Assembly (NCBI GenBank): GCA_964604155.1
Contig: CAZRXY010000117.1
Location: 3,945-67,944 of the forward strand
Origin: an uncultured Candidatus Cloacimonadota bacterium
GTDB lineage: Bacteria > Cloacimonadota > Cloacimonadia > Cloacimonadales > TCS61
Length of the DNA: 64,000 bases
Direction: 5' to 3'
Shown: positions 2,916 to 52,854 of the stretch, piece after piece
Numbering within the stretch: the first letter of the stretch is position 1
How the letters are laid out: the number at the start of each line of letters is the position of its first letter
Notes under the pieces: model-generated
Told to the model about the DNA's origin: nothing
The model's database searches: none
Seen by the model: the letters and a program-made list of their open reading frames with translations, nothing else
Translations under genes and position numbers: made by a program

Positions 2916-4208
2916 ATGAAATATTATATTGAGACATACGGCTGCCAGATGAATGTGGCAGATAGTGAACTTGTCATGACCATATTGGAAGATAATGGTT
3001 ACCTTAGAGCAATCTCAATCAGTGAAGCTGATGTGATAATATTTAATACCTGCTCTGTGCGTAAGCATGCGGAAGAACGGGTGCTGGGAAGGATCAGTAA
3101 TGAGATGAGACACAAGACAGATTCTCATCTGATCATTGGTGTGATCGGCTGCATGGCACAAAGACTGGGAAAAGAACTATTCGATCTAAGTGCTGGAGTA
3201 GATTTTGTGGTTGGAGTAGATCAATACAATAATCTACCTGAGATAATTGAGACTGCCTATAGCAGAAAGCTGGTTTATAATACAAAAGTGGATAAGGATC
3301 AGGTGTATTCCGGCACTATTCCAAGACATCAGGATGTTCATAAAGCCTATATCACGATCATGAGAGGTTGCAATAATTTTTGCAGCTATTGTATTGTCCC
3401 TTTCACGCGGGGCAGAGAACGCAGCAGAACAGATAAGGATATTTTGGAAGACGTGAGAATCGCTGCCGGGCAGGGAAGAAAAGAGATTATGCTTCTAGGT
3501 CAGAATGTGAATTCTTATCAATATAAGAATATTGATTTTCCTCAATTGCTAAAGATGGTTAATGAAATAGATGGCATAGACAGGATTAGATTTACTACCT
3601 CGCATCCTAAAGACCTGTCCGATAAATTGATAGCTGCAATGGCAGAAAGCTCTAAAGTATGTGAACATTTTCATCTGGCGATGCAGTCCGGAGATAACAG
3701 GATATTGCAGAGTATGAATCGTGGCTATACTGCCGAAAGTTATTATAAATTGATTGCGAAACTGCGCTCTGCCATACCCGATATAGCAATTACCACAGAT
3801 GTGATTGCGGGTTTTCCAGGTGAGACCGAAGAACAATTTATGAGGACTTTTGATCTGATGAAAGAGATAGAGTTTGATTATGCCTTTATGTTCAAATATT
3901 CGCCGCGTTCCGGCACAAAGGCGGCAGAATTTTCTGACCAGGTCCCTGAGGAAATAAGATTGAACAGATTGCAAAGGCTTATTGAGCAGCAGGAAAAGAT
4001 CACAACTAAGAAATATCGCGATAAGATAGGGAAGAGGTGTGAGATATATGTGGAAGGTGTGAGCAGGAAATCTAAGCAGGAAGTTGCCGGGAAAACCCGC
4101 GATTTTAAAGTTACAGTATTTCCGGGGGAGATTGCTCTCATAGGAAAGTCGATCGAGGTGGAAATAATCGATGCTGCAGGCTGGACCCTGAAAGGGAAAC
4201 AGCTTTGA
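2916..4208 (+). CDS. miaB: tRNA-i6A37 methylthiotransferase MiaB
   Basis: YYIETYGCQMNVADSE, NTCSVR, GCMAQR, radical SAM motif CNNFCSYC, C-terminal TRAM domain. Confidence 0.95.
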   Translation: MKYYIETYGCQMNVADSELVMTILEDNGYLRAISISEADVIIFNTCSVRKHAEERVLGRISNEMRHKTDSHLIIGVIGCMAQRLGKELFDLSAGVDFVVGVDQYNNLPEIIETAYSRKLVYNTKVDKDQVYSGTIPRHQDVHKAYITIMRGCNNFCSYCIVPFTRGRERSRTDKDILEDVRIAAGQGRKEIMLLGQNVNSYQYKNIDFPQLLKMVNEIDGIDRIRFTTSHPKDLSDKLIAAMAESSKVCEHFHLAMQSGDNRILQSMNRGYTAESYYKLIAKLRSAIPDIAITTDVIAGFPGETEEQFMRTFDLMKEIEFDYAFMFKYSPRSGTKAAEFSDQVPEEIRLNRLQRLIEQQEKITTKKYRDKIGKRCEIYVEGVSRKSKQEVAGKTRDFKVTVFPGEIALIGKSIEVEIIDAAGWTLKGKQL

Positions 4209-44852: not shown

Positions 44853-47800
44853 TTATTCTTCGGCAAGTTTTTTGAACTTATTGTATCTTTTGATCACATA
44901 GTCCTTAAAGAGAGCAACGTATTTATCTGAGTTTTCCGGGAAAGTGGTTTTCAGGCTGGAATAGCGTTTTTCGCCTTTCAGGAAATCAGCAACGTCGATT
45001 TTTATTTCGGGACTTTCGAATATAAATGGGTTTTTGCCTTCATCTATCCGTCTGGGATCATAGCGATAGAGCAGCCAATAGCCTGCATCAACGGCTTTTT
45101 TCTCTTCTTTCTGGCTCATACTCATATTTATGCCGTGATTAATGCAGGGTGAATAGGCAATTATGATAGAGGGTCCTTCATATTCTTCAGCTTCTCTAAG
45201 AGCTTTCATAAATTGGTTTTTATTAGCGCCCATGGCACAGGAAGCCACATAAACGTAGCCATATTCCATGATCATCTTACCAAGTTCTTTTTTGACTGTG
45301 GGTTTGCCTGATTCTGCAAATTTTGCCACAGCTCCGAGTGGTGAAGATTTGGATGCCTGACCACCGGTATTAGAATAAACCTCGGTATCCAGGACGAGAA
45401 TATTGATATTTCTACCAGAGGCGAGTACGTGGTCGACGCCGCCGTAGCCGATATCATAAGCCCAGCCATCGCCTCCGAAAGCCCAGATAGATTTATCTAC
45501 GAGGAAGTTTTTGAGTTCGTAGATTTTCTTCAGGATTGCTTCTGTATCTGGAGAAGCAGATTTAATTGCTGCCGGCAGTAACTTTTTGATATCAGCAGCA
45601 TTATCTTTTGCCTGATCATCTACAGATTTCCAATTATCAAGAGACCAGGTTAGCTTTTCTGACAGTTCACTGGAAGTGCCAAGTTCAAGAACTTGAGATA
45701 TCTTAGTTTTTAGTTGCTTGCGATTAGCATCTACAGCGAGTCTCATGCCCATGGCATATTCTGCGTTGTCTTCAAAGAGAGAATTTGCCCAGGCGGGACC
45801 AAGGCCATTCTTATTATGACAATAAGGAATAGTTGGGAAAGTGCCGCCATAAATTGAAGAACAACCTGTAGCATTTCCAATGAGCATACGATCACCGTAT
45901 AGCTGAGTGACAAGGCGAACGTAGGGCGTTTCACCGCAGCCTGCACAGGCACCTGAGAATTCAAAGAGAGGCTGTTTGAACTGGCTGCCTTTAACGGTAT
46001 ATTGGTCTGAGACTTTGGATAGAACATCATTTGGCAGATTATCAAAGAATTCCGCATTAATAGTTTCGCCCCTGTCGCGTTCTTCCTGGATAGGCTTCAT
46101 AACGAGGGCTTGCACGGGGCATTCATTAACGCACACGCTGCAACCCTGGCAATCTTCGGGATACACCTGGATTTTAAATTTCATGCCTTCGTCTTTGGAT
46201 TTGGCATCGAGGGTAACAAAATTTTCCGGTGCATCTTTGAGGTTAAGGGGGTCAATTAGTTTTGCGCGAATGGCAGCATGGGGGCACACGAATGAGCACT
46301 GGTTACACTGGATACACTTTTCGGGGATCCACTGCGGCACAAATGGGGCCACGCCGCGTTTTTCCAATCTGCTGGTAGCAGAAGGGATATAACCATCATA
46401 CGGCATGTGCGAAACCGGGATTTCGTCACCTTTTTCACGCATGATCTTTTCAATCACGTTGCGGGTGAATTCATCTGCATCATCAGGCACAAGCTTGTGC
46501 ATATCCATAGCCTTGCAACCACATTCGGCAGGCAATTCTATTTTTTGAATACTTTCTTTGGTTCTATCTACAGCCAGCAGGTTCATCTCAATAACTTTAT
46601 CCCCTTTTTTGGCAAATGTTTTATGGATGAAGTTCTTGATCATTTTAATAGCAGTATCTTCCGGCAGAATACCTGAGATGAGGAAATAGGCAGTTTGCAT
46701 AACAGAATTGATTTTTGTACCCAGACCAACTTCCTGAGCTATTTTGAGAGCATTGACATTATAGACCTTAATTTTTTTATCGATGATCTCACGTTGCATA
46801 TCGGCAGTGAGATTATCAAAAACTTCATCGGCAGACCAGATGGAATTCAGCAGAAAAACGCCATTTTCCTTGATACCTTCCAGAAGGTCGTACCTGCCGA
46901 TGTAAGCCTGATTGTGGCAGGCAATAAAATCAGCGGCTACAACTGTATATTCGCTTTGAATAGGGGCTTTACCAAATCGCAGGTGTGAACGGGTTACGCC
47001 ACCGGATTTTTTGGAATCATACTGGAAATAGCCCTGACAATACATATCGGTGCCGTCGCCAATGATCTTGATGGAGTTTTTATTTGCTCCCACCGTACCG
47101 TCGGAACCGAGCCCCCAGAATTTACAGGAAATAGTACCTTCCGGGATAGTGGGCAGGTTTTCTCCAACCGGAATAGACCTGTGTGAGACATCATCATTAA
47201 TTCCCACAGTGAAGCCATGGAAGCCATCATTTTCAAGGTGATCATAAACGGCTTTCACCATGGCAGGTGTAAATTCTTTTGAAGATAAGCCATATCTTCC
47301 ACCAATAATAATAAGGTCTTTTCTATCTTTAAGTGCTGCTACGGTATCAAGGTAGAGGGGTTCTCCCAGAGAGCCCGGCTCTTTTGTGCGGTCAAGGACT
47401 ACGATTTTCTTCACGGATTCAGGAATAGCTGCTGTGAAATCTTTTACTGAGAAGGGTCTATAGAGGTGGACAGAAAGGAGACCAAGTTTTTCGCCTTTAT
47501 TATTAAGATAAGATATAGTTTCCTGAATAGTTTCGCAGCCGCTTCCCATAGCGATAATGATTTTATCCGCCTGGGGATCGCCATAATAATTAAAGAGATG
47601 ATATTCTCGCCCGGTGAGATCGGAGACGGCTTTCATATATTCTTTAACAATATTGGGAGTTTCATCATAGAGTAGATTAGTGGTTTCTCTGCCTTGGAAA
47701 TAGACATCGGGATTCTGAGCTCCCACTTTTACGCGGGGAGCATCCGGATTAAGAGCACGGCTGCGAAAATCTTCCACGTATTTCATATCTACCATTTCTT

Positions 47801-48380
47801 TCATGGTATCATAATCAATTATGTCTATTTTTTGTATTTCATGAGAATTGCGAAAGCCATCAAAGAAATTGAGAAAAGGTACCTGGGATTTGAGAGTAGA
47901 AAGATGAGAAACAACGCCAAGGTCCATGATTTCCTGCAGCGAAGAAGCAGCCATCAAAGCAAAGCCGGTATTCCTGGCGGACATTACGTCGGAGTGGTCA
48001 CCAAAAATAGAAAGACTTTGAGCTGCGAGCGAGCGAGCAGAAACATGAAAAACCGTGGGCAGCATTTCGCCGGCAATTTTGTGCATGTTTGGCAGCATAA
48101 GCAATAAACCCTGCGAAGCCGTGAAAGTGGTAGTGAGAGCACCCGCAGTTAATGAGCCGTGAATTGCACCGGCAGCTCCAGCTTCAGACTGCATTTCCAC
48201 AACATCTACCTTTTCACCAAATATATTTTTTCTATTATTGGCAGCCCAGGTATCAGCGTATTCCCCCATCGTAGAGGACGGGGTGATGGGATATATTGCA
48301 GCCACATCACTAAAGGCATAAGCAACATGAGCGGCTGCTTGATTTCCATCAACTGTAGCCTTTTTAAATACTTTGGTCAT
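44853..48380 (-). CDS. nifJ: Pyruvate:ferredoxin (flavodoxin) oxidoreductase, single-chain
   Basis: YPITPSS, GLGSDGTVGANKN, CIQCNQCSFVCPH, FSGACAGCGE, GGDGWAYDIG, YSNTGGQ; 1175 aa. Confidence 0.96.
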   Translation of the reverse strand: MTKVFKKATVDGNQAAAHVAYAFSDVAAIYPITPSSTMGEYADTWAANNRKNIFGEKVDVVEMQSEAGAAGAIHGSLTAGALTTTFTASQGLLLMLPNMHKIAGEMLPTVFHVSARSLAAQSLSIFGDHSDVMSARNTGFALMAASSLQEIMDLGVVSHLSTLKSQVPFLNFFDGFRNSHEIQKIDIIDYDTMKEMVDMKYVEDFRSRALNPDAPRVKVGAQNPDVYFQGRETTNLLYDETPNIVKEYMKAVSDLTGREYHLFNYYGDPQADKIIIAMGSGCETIQETISYLNNKGEKLGLLSVHLYRPFSVKDFTAAIPESVKKIVVLDRTKEPGSLGEPLYLDTVAALKDRKDLIIIGGRYGLSSKEFTPAMVKAVYDHLENDGFHGFTVGINDDVSHRSIPVGENLPTIPEGTISCKFWGLGSDGTVGANKNSIKIIGDGTDMYCQGYFQYDSKKSGGVTRSHLRFGKAPIQSEYTVVAADFIACHNQAYIGRYDLLEGIKENGVFLLNSIWSADEVFDNLTADMQREIIDKKIKVYNVNALKIAQEVGLGTKINSVMQTAYFLISGILPEDTAIKMIKNFIHKTFAKKGDKVIEMNLLAVDRTKESIQKIELPAECGCKAMDMHKLVPDDADEFTRNVIEKIMREKGDEIPVSHMPYDGYIPSATSRLEKRGVAPFVPQWIPEKCIQCNQCSFVCPHAAIRAKLIDPLNLKDAPENFVTLDAKSKDEGMKFKIQVYPEDCQGCSVCVNECPVQALVMKPIQEERDRGETINAEFFDNLPNDVLSKVSDQYTVKGSQFKQPLFEFSGACAGCGETPYVRLVTQLYGDRMLIGNATGCSSIYGGTFPTIPYCHNKNGLGPAWANSLFEDNAEYAMGMRLAVDANRKQLKTKISQVLELGTSSELSEKLTWSLDNWKSVDDQAKDNAADIKKLLPAAIKSASPDTEAILKKIYELKNFLVDKSIWAFGGDGWAYDIGYGGVDHVLASGRNINILVLDTEVYSNTGGQASKSSPLGAVAKFAESGKPTVKKELGKMIMEYGYVYVASCAMGANKNQFMKALREAEEYEGPSIIIAYSPCINHGINMSMSQKEEKKAVDAGYWLLYRYDPRRIDEGKNPFIFESPEIKIDVADFLKGEKRYSSLKTTFPENSDKYVALFKDYVIKRYNKFKKLAEE

Positions 48381-48517
48381 ACAACCTCCTAAAAGAAATT
48401 ATTTTATGTCAATTTTGATAATTTTAAGTTTCCGTCAACCTGAAAAGTTAGAAGTTGAGAAAAAAAAGATAAATCTTAGAATTCGGAAATTTTTTAAGCC
48501 AATTCGTCTATAAAACA

Positions 48518-49477
48518 TTATTGATTTATGATGTCTTCCAGTCTGGGTGTAAAAAATTTAAAATATTGCTGATCGCTGTCATCATTTTCCCAGATCAATT
48601 TTTTTATATTATTTATTTCTGTATCGATAAGCACTTTTTCGAGTTCGGAAGCATGAGGTAAATAGTTTTCCAGAACGAACCAGGCTAGCATAAAATAGCC
48701 TTCATGAACCAGAAGCTGGGCAAGATTGGATACGATATCATACATATAGCTAAAATCGGGAAAGTATAGATAGAGTTTTAGCAGCGGGATCAAAGCTTTT
48801 GCCAAAAGGTCTTGAGCCTGATATCCAATGAACTGAATCACCAAAGCCTGCGGCATTTTAAGGCTGTCCTGCAGGGCTTCCGCTTTACCGGCAAAAGAAA
48901 CAGCTTCAGAATATTTTTTCTGAAATATCTGATTAGTGGCAATTTTGAGATATAATTGATGATCCTGAATAGCAAAATCACCTTCGAGCAGACTTATATA
49001 GATATCGTTAGCTTCGGCAAAGAGAAAATTATCTTCATAGAGTTCTGCCAGAAGGATAATCATCTTGAAATAAAGGGTATTATCCTTAATATTAGATACA
49101 ACTTCTACAACGATATCAATAGCGGTTCGGGGCTGGAGTTTTGGGACGATTTGTGCTAATTTATTAGCAGAGGCATAAAGCAGGCTGTCATTTTTTGAGA
49201 CGGCAAAGACTTTGGCATAGCCCTGAGCAGCCGCCGGCAGATCATTCTGGAAATAATAGAGCGAAGCAGAGAGCCAGGCGACAGAATCTGCTTTATTTTC
49301 ACTGAATTGTTGTGTTTCGATCACGTTTTTTGCTAATTCCAGTTCATTATGCCCCAGATAGTGCTTAAGCAGTTCAAAGGCATAGTCATCGGGAGTATTT
49401 TCTGATTGGGCGACAAGAGGAGCTATAAGCAGGCAGGCAAAAAATAAGAAGAATATCAATTTATTTTCTGGCATCAT
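48518..49477 (-). CDS. Hypothetical exported TPR-like protein
   Basis: Signal peptide (KLIFFLFFACLLIAPLVA) from MMPENK and helical repeats; start overlaps the end of the activase gene. Confidence 0.6.
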   Translation of the reverse strand: MMPENKLIFFLFFACLLIAPLVAQSENTPDDYAFELLKHYLGHNELELAKNVIETQQFSENKADSVAWLSASLYYFQNDLPAAAQGYAKVFAVSKNDSLLYASANKLAQIVPKLQPRTAIDIVVEVVSNIKDNTLYFKMIILLAELYEDNFLFAEANDIYISLLEGDFAIQDHQLYLKIATNQIFQKKYSEAVSFAGKAEALQDSLKMPQALVIQFIGYQAQDLLAKALIPLLKLYLYFPDFSYMYDIVSNLAQLLVHEGYFMLAWFVLENYLPHASELEKVLIDTEINNIKKLIWENDDSDQQYFKFFTPRLEDIINQ

Positions 49478-50243
49478 GATGTTCTGCGGCAAAAATTGCG
49501 GCACCGAGAGCACCGGTTATAAAGGGATTTGAGGGGACTTTTACGGGGACGCCGCATTCATTTTGCAAACAATTTACCATAGCACAATTGAGTGCTACGC
49601 CTCCGGTGAATACGATACTCGATTTTTTGGGGAAAGTGGCTATCATACCGGCAATGCGTGCAGCAATGGAGCGATGGACAGAATCGGCAATATCGGAGGC
49701 ACTATTACCCTGGGCAATTAAACCGATCATTTCGGATTCTGCAAATACTACGCAGGTACTGCTGATATTGAGTTTTTTTATCACTTTCATAGCCAGATTT
49801 CCTAATTCTGCAATATCTACCTCCAGGATATCGGCAGCTTTTTCAAGGAACCTTCCAGTTCCAGCGGCACATCTGTCATTCATCACAAAATCCAGCACTT
49901 TGCCACCGGAGCCAATACAAATACCTTTAGAATCTTGACCTCCGATATCAATTATAATTTCTGCCTGCGGGAAAAAATAATTCACGCCTTTGGCATGACA
50001 ACTAATTTCTGAGATTATTTTTCGGTTATCGCCAATCAGGTTTCTGCCATAGCCGGTAACGACTACCGGGATATGATTGATATTTATTACATTACACTGA
50101 TTAAGGGCATTTCTAAGGAGAATATCAGCGGTTTTCAGGGGTGTTATACCCGTATTGATAACTTGAGAATAGATAATTTTATTATCCTCAAAAAGGACAA
50201 TTTTGGAAGTTTTAGAGCCCGAATCAAGACCGCACGAAATCAC
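49461..50243 (-). CDS. 2-hydroxyacyl-CoA dehydratase activator (HgdC/HadI-type ASKHA ATPase, archerase)
   Basis: GLDSGSKTSK, VTGYGR, DIGGQDSK, MNDRCAAGTGRFLE, SSTCVVFAESE, FTGGVA, GALGAA. GTG start with GGAGG SD. Confidence 0.9.
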   Translation of the reverse strand: MISCGLDSGSKTSKIVLFEDNKIIYSQVINTGITPLKTADILLRNALNQCNVININHIPVVVTGYGRNLIGDNRKIISEISCHAKGVNYFFPQAEIIIDIGGQDSKGICIGSGGKVLDFVMNDRCAAGTGRFLEKAADILEVDIAELGNLAMKVIKKLNISSTCVVFAESEMIGLIAQGNSASDIADSVHRSIAARIAGMIATFPKKSSIVFTGGVALNCAMVNCLQNECGVPVKVPSNPFITGALGAAIFAAEHHDARK

Positions 50244-50314
50244 CGGGCACCTCCTGCCGGTAACAGTAAAAGTAGAAGTAAAAAATTTAGTTTTAAAGAA
50301 TCACTTATAAACAT
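50240..50314 (-). CDS. Putative 24-aa Leu-rich leader/small peptide MFISDSLKLNFLLLLLLLPAGGAR
   Basis: ATG 2 nt after the M16 peptidase TAA; TGA overlaps the activase GTG; seven consecutive Leu codons (TTA CTT CTA CTT TTA CTG TTA). Confidence 0.45.
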   Translation of the reverse strand: MFISDSLKLNFLLLLLLLPAGGAR

Positions 50315-50316
50315 AA

Positions 50317-52854
50317 TTACTTAAGTATCTGGATAAAAAAATTATCCTTATGTAAGAATTCACGAGCAACAGACTGAACTTCCTCTTTAGAGACTGCCAG
50401 AATCCTTTGGCGTCTGGTCAAATAATTTTCCATGCCCAGACCAAGTGCTATTTTTCGGCTGATTGAAGCGGCAATGGAGGATACGCTTTCTTCTTCTTGG
50501 AGTATTTCACCGATAATGTGATTTTTGATTTTAGTGAGCTCCAGATTTGAAATGCCTTCTGAGACTATCTGGCTGAAAAGCTGTTTTATCATCTTCAAAC
50601 CGATAGCAGTATTATCTCTATCTACAACGGCAGCAGTGATATACATTCCGGTTTGCCTACCGGCAAAATATTCCATTTCCACAGAATAGGCAAGTCCATT
50701 TTTTTCACGCAATTCGTTGAACAGGCGGGAATTGGTATCACCACCCAGAATCTGGCAGAGAACGTTCATAGCCAAAGCTCTTTTTGTATCTTGAATTCCG
50801 GGAGCATAACCGCCAATAATAATTACGCCCTGGCTGGATTGCCTGTCAGAAATTTTATACCTGTTTATGGCAGGATAAACCTCATTAAAAGTAGGCATTT
50901 TGGCAGGATATGATATCTTATCTGCAAAATATTTATTTACCATTTCATCAACAGAGGAAAAATTAAGATCACCGGCGACAACAAGAGTAAGATTGTCCGG
51001 AGTATAAAAGGTCTGATGCCATTTTTTAAGGCGGGACAGCGAGAGATTAGCAAAATCCTTTCGTTTCCCTTCGCGGTTATAGAGATTGCTTTTGGAGCCA
51101 AAAATCTGCTTTCGCCATAACATCATAGCCTGTTGCTGCGGATAATCTTTGATGCGGTGCATCGAACTGAGAATGGAATTTTTTACATTCTGGAAATGTT
51201 CACGGGGAAATTCCGGCTGAAAGATCACATAAGAGAGCATTTCCAGAGCAAGCGGCAAATCTTCCTGGAAGCATTTGCATTTGATAGTGGTGATATCCAT
51301 GAGGGGGCTCACACGTATCTGTATGCCATGCATGAGACAGAAATCCAGAAATTTGTCATAACTATGCAATCTATTGCCATAAAGCAACATAGCTCCTGTG
51401 AGGTAATTAGCACCCCGGAATCCTGGAGGTTCATAAAGCTGAGAGACCCTTATGGTGGCAGCAATACCAATTGTGGGTTTGCCAATTATTTTTTTATAGA
51501 TTATGCTGGCACCGTTATCGAATTTCCTTTCCAGGTAGTCGACACGCTTCTGATCAAATCTTATAGTCTCTTTCTTCTGGAATAAAGAATAAATCAGGGA
51601 GGAATCAACATTTGCAGAACCTTTGTAGAAAATATTAATATGCTTCTCATCGAGCCATTTATCGAGGCATGATCTAATGTCCTGGCGTGAAATCTTTTTT
51701 AACCTACCGGGAAAACTATAATAATTTCTATAATCAGAATATATTTCTTCTGAGCCAAGATTAGAGGCATAAGATTCCATGTACTCCCGGGAAATGCGGA
51801 AAGAATTGAGGATTTCTGCCGTATGCTGCATCAATTGAACGGCGCTTATACCTCGGCATCTAAAATCATGCCAGCAATCCCGGAAGCCTTTGATAACCTC
51901 CAGGGGAGAAACTCCCTGCTTAGGAAAAAGCAGTAAAATGGTCACCCCGTCATGAATTCCGCTGATCCCGTTGACTTTAATATTATCTATAAGTTTTTTC
52001 TTTTTGAATAATTCATCGTAAAGATATGAATTTTTTTCCATAAAAAAGGCTTTATAAAGAACAGACAGGGCGATGGAATCAGGGTGATTCTCTGCTAAAT
52101 CAGGCAAGGCAACCGCAATAACATCAGATTGAGATTTGTGTTTTACAGTAGTGAATTTGAATTGTTGAGGATGACCGCCAAACTGGGAAGGACGATCTCT
52201 TCTCGGCTTATTTTGCCAATCACCAAAAAAGCCGGATATCCACATATCAAGTTCACTTCTTTGATAATCACCGGCGATTACCAAGAAACTATTGCCTGGA
52301 AAGTAGTGGTCCGAAATAAATTTTCTAAGTTCCGCAGCAGTTGCCCTTTTAAGATTCTGACGATTGCCAATAATGGGATTCTTGTAAGGGTTATCCGTGA
52401 GATACAAGCCGGCAACAGTTTCGATAAAACTATCCTCCGGATCATTTTCGGCTTCCTTAAGCTCTTCAAAGATCACTTTACGCTCAGAGAGAAAATCTTT
52501 CTCGGTGAAATTGGCATGGATGATAAGATCGGAAAGCACTTGAAGTGCTTCTTTTATATATTCGCTGGAAATATCCAGATAGTAGCAAGTGCTGTCATAT
52601 TCCGTATAGGCATTAATGGAACCTCCCAGAAAAGCAATTCTATCTATAATGTTACCTTCGGGATAATCGTGATGGCTTTTAAATACAAGGTGCTCGGAAA
52701 AATGTGAGAATCCCGCCTCATCACTGCTTTCCCAGGCTGAGCCCGTGAGAATATATAATTGGATACTAACTAAGGGATTAGAGTGATCGGGCGCATAAAT
52801 TACTTTAAGTCCATTCTCTAAAATACTATGTTCTGCTTGTTTAATATTTTTCAT
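50317..52854 (-). CDS. M16 (insulinase/pitrilysin) family zinc peptidase, two-domain fusion
   Basis: HFSEH (HxxEH), NAYT, SRLFNELREKNGLAYSV. Confidence 0.92.
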   Translation of the reverse strand: MKNIKQAEHSILENGLKVIYAPDHSNPLVSIQLYILTGSAWESSDEAGFSHFSEHLVFKSHHDYPEGNIIDRIAFLGGSINAYTEYDSTCYYLDISSEYIKEALQVLSDLIIHANFTEKDFLSERKVIFEELKEAENDPEDSFIETVAGLYLTDNPYKNPIIGNRQNLKRATAAELRKFISDHYFPGNSFLVIAGDYQRSELDMWISGFFGDWQNKPRRDRPSQFGGHPQQFKFTTVKHKSQSDVIAVALPDLAENHPDSIALSVLYKAFFMEKNSYLYDELFKKKKLIDNIKVNGISGIHDGVTILLLFPKQGVSPLEVIKGFRDCWHDFRCRGISAVQLMQHTAEILNSFRISREYMESYASNLGSEEIYSDYRNYYSFPGRLKKISRQDIRSCLDKWLDEKHINIFYKGSANVDSSLIYSLFQKKETIRFDQKRVDYLERKFDNGASIIYKKIIGKPTIGIAATIRVSQLYEPPGFRGANYLTGAMLLYGNRLHSYDKFLDFCLMHGIQIRVSPLMDITTIKCKCFQEDLPLALEMLSYVIFQPEFPREHFQNVKNSILSSMHRIKDYPQQQAMMLWRKQIFGSKSNLYNREGKRKDFANLSLSRLKKWHQTFYTPDNLTLVVAGDLNFSSVDEMVNKYFADKISYPAKMPTFNEVYPAINRYKISDRQSSQGVIIIGGYAPGIQDTKRALAMNVLCQILGGDTNSRLFNELREKNGLAYSVEMEYFAGRQTGMYITAAVVDRDNTAIGLKMIKQLFSQIVSEGISNLELTKIKNHIIGEILQEEESVSSIAASISRKIALGLGMENYLTRRQRILAVSKEEVQSVAREFLHKDNFFIQILK

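Follow-up and report, generated by a model that had tools for sequence, protein, structure and literature searches.

A 64,000-nucleotide stretch of DNA (hereafter, the window) from an uncultured Candidatus Cloacimonadota bacterium was analysed around a 24-codon open reading frame (ORF) that fills the gap between the gene of an M16 peptidase and the gene of an acyl-CoA dehydratase activase-like ATPase. The window comprises positions 3,945 to 67,944 of contig CAZRXY010000117.1 in the metagenome-assembled genome GCA_964604155.1 (2.94 Mb, 153 contigs, 90.6% complete). In the initial annotation, the small ORF had been interpreted as a leucine-sensing leader peptide that controls the activase gene. 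Here, it is considered as a candidate relay, or "ribosome delivery", ORF, through which translation of the activase would be coupled to that of the peptidase.

The genes concerned are all located on the minus strand. The peptidase gene (50317..52854) encodes a protein of 845 amino acids with two M16 units (Pfam Peptidase_M16, 1e-38; Peptidase_M16_C, 6.3e-52). Its stop codon TAA (50319-50317) is followed by the dinucleotide tt and then by the ATG of the small ORF at 50314, 2 nucleotides past the stop. The small ORF (50240..50314; product MFISDSLKLNFLLLLLLLPAGGAR) ends with a TGA codon (50242-50240), which shares bases with the GTG start codon of the activase (50243-50241) in the sequence GTGA (50243-50240). 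It therefore displays both features of a bridging layout: its start abuts the upstream stop, and its stop overlaps the downstream start. The gap between the two genes is 73 nucleotides long; the frame of the small ORF contains no stop codons across it, and the other two frames contain three and one. The ATG of the small ORF is not preceded by a Shine-Dalgarno sequence.

The activase gene (49461..50243) encodes a 260-amino-acid ATPase of the BcrAD/BadFG family (PF01869, 2.2e-52). Its GTG at 50243 is the earliest start codon in this frame and lies 6 nucleotides 3' of a GGAGG sequence (50254-50250). In alignments, the N-terminus of the activase, ISCGLDSGS, matched up with the N-termini of its relatives, and the C-terminus of the peptidase aligned to its end in relatives. 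A hairpin surrounds the activase start (50239..50264). The sequence statements of the initial annotation, namely, the position of the ORF, the 2-nucleotide spacing, the GTGA overlap, the leucine codons and the hairpin, all proved to be correct.

No promoter-like or terminator-like site was detected in the gap by a sequence scan. No Rfam family matched the gap either; the sole match within 49900-50700 was a chance-level small nucleolar RNA model on the opposite strand (E = 0.11). A contig from an RNA (metatranscriptome) library, X5, corresponded to 50511-50253 with zero differences and covered the 3' end of the peptidase gene and most of the small ORF. It is compatible with a single transcript, although strand, ends and translation are not readable from a contig of this type. 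A DNA contig from another study, X2, was identical over the gap and had one difference at 50190, whereas the contigs X3 and X4 did not extend into the gap. On the opposite strand, an ATG-initiated ORF of 83 amino acids at 50073-50324 (+) is antisense to the gap and to the 5' end of the activase gene and is likely to be a shadow ORF.

Bridging ORFs in the genus and across the genome

An activase match was found in 38 of the 41 genomes searched, the window's own genome included, and the peptidase-activase gene order was widespread among relatives. Among 190 loci, a count that includes the window's own locus and twice-fetched records, 52 had the peptidase C-terminus upstream of the activase. The gap to the activase was no longer than 300 nucleotides in 38 of these 52 loci, and in the remaining ones, a sirtuin gene was usually located between the peptidase and the activase. 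The closest relatives were four genomes of the same genus (G001-G004), in which the activase was 58-68% identical to that of the window. Searches for closer relatives yielded 80 loci in the metagenome scan, with a best identity of 64%, and 80 loci in the genome scan, with a best identity of 68%, all of them too distant to reveal synonymous changes in the leucine run.

Each of the four same-genus genomes likewise had an ATG at the stop codon of the peptidase gene, and the frame opened by it reached the start of the next gene, over gaps of 28, 40, 40 and 147 nucleotides. Three of these cases were separate ORFs (gaps of 40 or 147 nucleotides), and one was an in-frame extension (28 nucleotides). 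The probability of such frames arising by chance was estimated by shuffling the dinucleotides of each gap 20,000 times between fixed flanks; two values are given below, for ATG and for any start codon. The most informative case was that of G001 (L002:630-779), in which the gap is 147 nucleotides long and the next gene encodes a sirtuin. Here, a 49-codon ORF began 1 nucleotide past the peptidase stop and ended with ATGA on the sirtuin start, with chance values of 0.0006 and 0.0023; its product is basic, and its frame had no stops versus seven and four in the other frames. In G003, an ATG 1 nucleotide past the stop was in frame with the activase and added nine codons to it (0.087 and 0.14). In G002, G004 and the metagenome contig L035, the 40-nucleotide gap carried a 15-codon ORF extending from ATGA to TTGA (about 0.43-0.50). 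When the same-genus cases were combined by Fisher's method, with the window left out as the discovery case, the p-value was 0.0017 (ATG) to 0.0077 (any start).

The gap of the window had no detectable DNA similarity to the gaps of the same-genus genomes (p >= 0.22 in five comparisons). Therefore, the bridging ORFs of this genus are not one inherited sequence. A module, GCAGGAG-N7-NTGA, was recognized by eye as common to the window and the same-genus gaps. Taken together, this comparison of sequences is suggestive of a layout of the bridging ORF, rather than its sequence, being kept within the genus.

In other genera, the gene next to the peptidase typically began within 6 nucleotides of the peptidase stop (14 loci). 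Hence, tight coupling is the norm at this junction.

The frequency of bridging ORFs was also determined for the whole genome. Genes were called as ORFs of at least 100 codons, chosen greedily without overlap, and their starts were assigned from the score of Shine-Dalgarno pairing. Junctions between co-directional genes 55-200 nucleotides apart were collected, and those with an alternative start of the downstream frame near the upstream stop were removed, which left 214 junctions. Out-of-frame ORFs that ended within 4 nucleotides of the downstream start were then counted according to where they began relative to the upstream stop, and the counts were compared with those from shuffled sequence. 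Eight ORFs began at -4 to +6 nucleotides (2.9 expected) and 16 at +7 to +17 (4.1 expected). In the control bins, 7 began at +18 to +28 (5.9 expected) and 8 at +29 to +39 (7.5 expected). Thus, ORFs spanning the whole gap, that is, beginning within 17 nucleotides of the stop, numbered 24 against 7.0 expected (an approximately 3.4-fold excess, Poisson 4e-7), whereas the controls, which began 18-39 nucleotides away, were flat (15 against 13.4); the excess was limited to the former. A looser count over gaps of 25-200 nucleotides gave 18 such ORFs at 299 junctions, compared with 6.0 expected. In a 1.6-Mb part of a closed genome of the same order (G027; 108 junctions), the corresponding figures were 9 against 2.6, with 7 against 4.4 for the controls. 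A histogram of the stop positions of ORFs begun at the upstream stop was non-discriminating, since ORFs begun 10-20 nucleotides further on peaked alike. Examples of short gap-spanning ORFs elsewhere in the window's genome were located on contigs C14, C136, C21, C99 and C45.

The leucine run, the hairpin and the activase

Nine of the 24 codons of the small ORF encode leucine (TTA four times, CTT twice, CTA twice and CTG once), and codons 12-18 form an uninterrupted run of seven (TTA CTT CTA CTT TTA CTG TTA) with four codon types. This run coincides with a tandem repeat of period 6 and 4.0 copies at 50260..50283, which was detected by Tandem Repeats Finder (83% matches, no indels, score 34) and reads TTTTAC TTCTAC TTTTAC TGTTAC on the mRNA strand. 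In the frame of the small ORF, each hexamer unit encodes Leu-Leu, and the two codons of the repeat unit, together with two point changes, account for the four codon types. The run should therefore be counted as one event, not seven. Moreover, because expansion by hexamers adds codon pairs and cannot break the frame, the open frame over the run is uninformative with regard to selection. The two point changes that depart from the consensus of the repeat both leave leucine encoded, an outcome with a chance probability of 0.077.

The hexamer array was found once in the genome when up to three mismatches were allowed. Runs of seven leucine codons occurred in 2 of the 21,763 small ATG ORFs (15-60 codons) of the genome, and runs of six occurred in four more. 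In related loci, a run of at least four leucine codons was sought in any sense frame within 150 nucleotides upstream of the activase. It was present in 0 of the 179 relatives; 180 loci included the N-terminus of the activase with 120 or more nucleotides upstream of it, and the window's own was the single positive. The run was also absent from all four same-genus genomes (G001-G004). Lack of conservation of the run had been named beforehand as the outcome that would speak against a leucine-sensing leader, and that was the outcome obtained.

The hairpin at the activase start has one arm at 50264-50255 and the other at 50249-50239, and a single C is bulged out; the GGAGG sequence constitutes the loop, and the GTG is part of the 3' arm. 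Its folding energy was -12.0 kcal/mol for 30 nucleotides and -8.8 kcal/mol for the 22 nucleotides specified in the initial annotation. The region from -35 to +15 around the activase start had an energy of -12.5 kcal/mol, a level of structure reached by 3.9% of 2004 crudely called gene starts (mean -5.06, standard deviation 3.48). The same region in relatives had energies of -0.9 to -7.1 kcal/mol, none of which went beyond the shuffled controls. No alternative or mutually exclusive pairing was found in a 106-nucleotide fold, which comprised this one hairpin, the remainder being weak. Thus, the hairpin exists as it had been described, with the Shine-Dalgarno sequence in the loop and the start codon in the stem, but it is not a conserved structure.

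The activase had been linked in the initial annotation to HadI, the activator of 2-hydroxyisocaproyl-CoA dehydratase in leucine fermentation. The protein has the BcrAD/BadFG ATPase fold of HadI/HgdC-type activators (PF01869; NCBIfam TIGR00241, 3.4e-74, 249.5 bits versus a cut-off of 125.4), and it matched the generic acyl-CoA dehydratase activase domain model only. Activators of the HadI/HgdC type are by definition encoded together with a two-subunit HGD-D dehydratase and with the CoA-transferase and dehydrogenase of the pathway, and the known 2-hydroxyacyl-CoA dehydratases have two HGD-D subunits. In the window, the genes adjoining the activase encode the M16 peptidase, a TPR protein and pyruvate:ferredoxin oxidoreductase. 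The conserved neighbours of the activase in relatives are the peptidase, in many cases a sirtuin, and the TPR protein, none of which is a dehydratase subunit. The genome contains a single HGD-D match (PF06050), a gene for 324 amino acids on another contig (C109:27478-28422, L191) between an ABC-F ATPase and a metallophosphoesterase; this lone gene of the 90.6% complete genome was found outside any fermentation cluster. An association of the activase with 2-hydroxyisocaproyl-CoA dehydratase, and with it a tie to leucine fermentation, is therefore not supported by the generic domain match, the TPR neighbour and the position of the HGD-D gene.

The small ORF as a proposed relay and the alternatives

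It is proposed, with a probability of about 0.5, that the small ORF is a relay ORF coupling translation of the activase to that of the peptidase over the 73-nucleotide gap. According to this proposal, a ribosome would terminate peptidase synthesis at the TAA codon and restart 2 nucleotides further on, at the ATG without a Shine-Dalgarno sequence. It would then read the 24 codons as far as the TGA, which shares bases with the activase GTG, and terminate there. In passing, it would unwind the hairpin over GGAGG and GTG, and the same or a fresh ribosome could begin synthesis of the activase. Reinitiation coupling has been described as steeply dependent on distance in E. coli and Haloferax, a spacing of approximately 20 nucleotides nearly abolishing it (PMC10666635). 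Since reinitiation falls so steeply with distance, a 73-nucleotide gap would break coupling unless the ribosome was carried across. Coupling through the unfolding of a closed ribosome-binding site is also described as possible (Brown & Wade 2025, PMC12548453). A relay ORF would be a known kind of device. The anatomy, the repeat, the recurrence in the genus and the genome-wide excess of bridging ORFs are observed, whereas translation of the ORF and dependence of the activase on it are presumed. Further points in favour of a relay are the energy of the activase start relative to other gene starts, the close spacing at this junction in other genera, the absence of promoter-like and terminator-like sites from the gap, and the RNA-library contig that extends from the peptidase gene into the small ORF. 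The leucine run would then be a by-product of the expansion of the hexamer repeat, and the peptide itself would have no function. One part of the earlier proposal, that a ribosome clears the small ORF, melts the hairpin and reinitiates, is retained here as plausible, since the layout recurs in the genus, whereas the leucine dependence attached to it is not, since neither the run nor the hairpin is conserved. No literature linking Cloacimonadota with translational coupling was found.

Another explanation is that the small ORF arose by chance in a non-coding spacer: the repeat expanded there, the frame remained open by accident, the activase starts from its own Shine-Dalgarno sequence, and both the ORF and the hairpin are idle. 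This explanation is a serious rival, although it is not the favoured one, and a number of observations weigh on its side or otherwise against a relay. A gap-spanning ORF was obtained in 2.3% (ATG, 0.023) to 4.9% (any start, 0.049) of the 20,000 shuffled gaps of the window; this value of 0.02-0.05 is modest and post hoc, since the window contains about 60 junctions, out of which the case had been selected in the initial annotation. The leucine run is a tandem repeat, and neither it nor the gap sequence is conserved. The small-ORF ATG lacks a Shine-Dalgarno sequence, and the strong GGAGG located 6 nucleotides from the GTG would permit the activase to be started independently. The hairpin was no more stable than shuffled sequences, both in the -35 to +15 region (z = -0.11; 43% of 300 shuffles were equally stable) and in the 106-nucleotide fold (118 of 200 shuffles), and it was absent or weak in G001-G003. 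None of the seven loci from other genera that had gaps of more than 40 nucleotides and no intervening gene carried a bridging ORF, and the 15-codon ORFs of G002, G004 and L035 have almost no statistical weight. The genome-wide excess was based on crude gene calls, and in G027, one of the control windows was also raised (5 against 1.8). The bridging ORFs of G027 also include plainly real small proteins, such as a 50-amino-acid hydrophobic one and a 34-amino-acid one present twice; for this reason, the excess indicates that bridging ORFs are in many cases genuine coding sequences and does not show that they are relays. What argues against mere chance is the occurrence of the same layout in unrelated gap sequences of the genus, foremost the 49-codon ORF of G001, together with the approximately 3.4-fold excess over the genome with flat controls.

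The leucine-sensing leader of the initial annotation, in which ample Leu-tRNA would lead to melting of the hairpin and synthesis of the activase while a shortage would stall the ribosome upstream and leave the hairpin shut, is considered to be highly improbable. In amino-acid-sensing leaders (leu, his, phe), codons for a single amino acid are densely clustered in a short ORF just 5' of an RNA hairpin, and the density found here, seven successive leucine codons and nine in 24, is comparable to the codon runs of classical attenuator leaders. The likeness extends to the position of the run immediately before a hairpin. In addition, the first leucine codons (7, 9 and 12) appear to be far enough upstream for a ribosome stalled there, judging from the usual footprint, to leave the hairpin closed; the synonymous nature of both repeat departures would also fit, though its chance probability is 0.077; and, should the small ORF act as a relay, the supply of Leu-tRNA must affect its output. 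However, in contrast to the leu, his and phe leaders, the ORF lies outside any 5' leader, the gene that follows has no tie to leucine, no terminator/antiterminator option is present, and the run is not conserved, being found in none of the 179 related loci and being accounted for by the four-copy repeat. The hairpin is not conserved either and has no alternative pairing, the gap contains no terminator-like site or Rfam match, and the generic activase match, TPR neighbour and lone distant HGD-D gene offer no pathway context. The leucine codons are not notably rare apart from the two CTA codons, CTA alone being a rare one (6.5% of leucine codons). The sole literature match for "2-hydroxyisocaproyl-CoA dehydratase" together with "leader peptide" appears to be a genome survey of acetogens. 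Thus, the proposed leader falls short in three respects: neither the run nor the structure is conserved, and the pathway context does not fit. Because the nearest relatives are only 60-68% identical in the activase, a sensor confined to this species is still conceivable. In this variant, to which very little probability is assigned, a species-specific expansion of the hexamer within an older relay ORF would have made throughput dependent on charged Leu-tRNA. If so, an ATP-consuming, ferredoxin-dependent activase would have become tied to the leucine supply, giving a catabolic, translation-level counterpart of biosynthetic attenuation at its origin.

Two further explanations concern the nature of the ORF product and the origin of the ORF, and both appear to be quite unlikely. 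A functional small peptide, for example, a membrane-associated partner of the peptidase or activase, would agree with the hydrophobic core FLLLLLLLPAGGA and with the resemblance of some bridging ORFs of the genome-wide count to real small proteins. Nevertheless, the unbroken hydrophobic stretch has 13 residues, which would be below the usual membrane span; the core corresponds to the DNA repeat; and the bridging ORFs of the same genus vary in length (15, 24 and 49 codons), and the DNA of the others has no detectable similarity to that of the window. The small ORF might alternatively be the scar of a deleted sirtuin gene, having kept the sirtuin start next to the peptidase stop and the sirtuin stop over the activase start; such an origin could coexist with a relay function. 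In G001, L031 and at least 10 further loci, the peptidase and activase genes are indeed separated by a sirtuin gene, the stop codon of which in most cases overlaps or adjoins the start of the activase. A decayed sirtuin N-terminus is present in the 185-nucleotide gap of L014, L041 and L123, the only SIR2 gene of the window's genome is located elsewhere, and the residues LLP of the small ORF resemble the (I/L)LP(E/K)L tail of the sirtuins. The last match is only three residues long, however, and comparison of the gap DNA with the 3' end of the G001 sirtuin gene gave p = 0.39 and with the peptidase-sirtuin gap of G001 p = 0.49. At least two deletions would have been needed, and the 49-codon ORF of G001, which precedes an intact sirtuin gene, would be left unexplained.

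In the tap-repA system of plasmid R1 and the repY-repZ system of ColIb-P9, a leader ORF of approximately 24-29 codons ends at the main start and must be translated to open a structured ribosome-binding site. Unlike the ORF described here, which follows a long upstream gene and has no known antisense element, these ORFs are located in a 5' leader and are targets of antisense RNAs. Within an operon, a similar arrangement is known from mgtQ, an 8-codon ORF between Salmonella mgtC and mgtB, the translation of which frees a ribosome-binding site held in a stem-loop (PMC8092293). Both small ORFs lie in the intergenic region of an operon, and translation of the one described here would likewise free a downstream ribosome-binding site from a predicted stem-loop. 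In contrast, mgtQ acts through acidic codons that destabilize the ribosome and through alternative stem-loops, whereas one hairpin is present here and the stop of the ORF falls on the activase start.

Short ORFs that "deliver" ribosomes, including ORFs within mycobacterial MIRU repeats, have been reported by Brown & Wade (2025, PMC12548453). As in those cases, the stop and start codons overlap by 4 nucleotides, and the role of the ORF would lie in its translation, not in its product. Repeated DNA inside an ORF between two genes of one operon is a further feature in common with the MIRUs. Unlike the MIRU repeats, the hexamer array occurs nowhere else in the genome and does not belong to a mobile or dispersed repeat family. 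Furthermore, the small ORF begins at the upstream stop and would relay ribosomes from a large gene instead of starting by itself, and it is known from sequence alone.

If the small ORF is a relay, the locus provides a natural example of coupling being kept while the spacer changes: the five genomes belong to one genus, yet their gaps measure 28, 40, 73 or 147 nucleotides, and they do not all have the same downstream gene. It also bears on the question of how widespread short delivery ORFs are (PMC12548453), and the excess of bridging ORFs in two Cloacimonadota genomes suggests that such ORFs could be counted from the sequence alone. The origin of the leucine run has a practical consequence as well. 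A dense run of a single amino acid in a tiny ORF can stem from one repeat expansion, and a sensor should not be called from it unless the run is conserved.

Gene order and further observations

The order of M16 peptidase, sirtuin (in some loci), BcrAD/BadFG activase and TPR protein was conserved over many genera of the phylum (window 44853-52854 (-) and loci L002-L030), forming a peptidase-activase cluster without a dehydratase. The two halves of the peptidase weakly resembled the YfmF and YfmH models, with scores below the cut-offs. In L014, L041 and L123, the peptidase-activase gap of approximately 185 nucleotides contained the remnant of a sirtuin N-terminus, with the motif VVLTG.G.SAESG, after which the frame was lost. 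These loci suggest that the sirtuin gene was lost repeatedly from the position between the peptidase and the activase. In the window's genome, the SIR2 match mentioned above is located at C113:20829-21347 (L192).

The gene 3' of the activase (48518..49513) encodes a hypothetical protein of 331 amino acids that is confined to the phylum. It had no Pfam match at E<=0.001 and only one chance-level match at E<=10, and NCBIfam gave nothing above chance. Eight homologues were found, all of them hypothetical; Pfam TPR domains were present in three of the eight, and the gene was in the same position in 17 related loci. Its longest frame overlaps the 3' end of the activase gene by 53 nucleotides (49461-49513). 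Because the nearest database cluster has a length of 319 amino acids, the true start is probably located approximately 12 codons later. Beyond this gene lies that of the pyruvate:ferredoxin oxidoreductase, with 1175 amino acids, and on the upstream side of the locus, FolE2, ApbE and RecO were identified by Pfam.

Finally, the conserved 34-amino-acid ORF of G027 (MILRKLGFTN...) was found in two copies, each over a 100-nucleotide gap, in C1 near 557047-557151 (+) and at 1360006-1360110 of the reverse-complemented 1.6-Mb stretch. It is probably a real small gene that has been duplicated.

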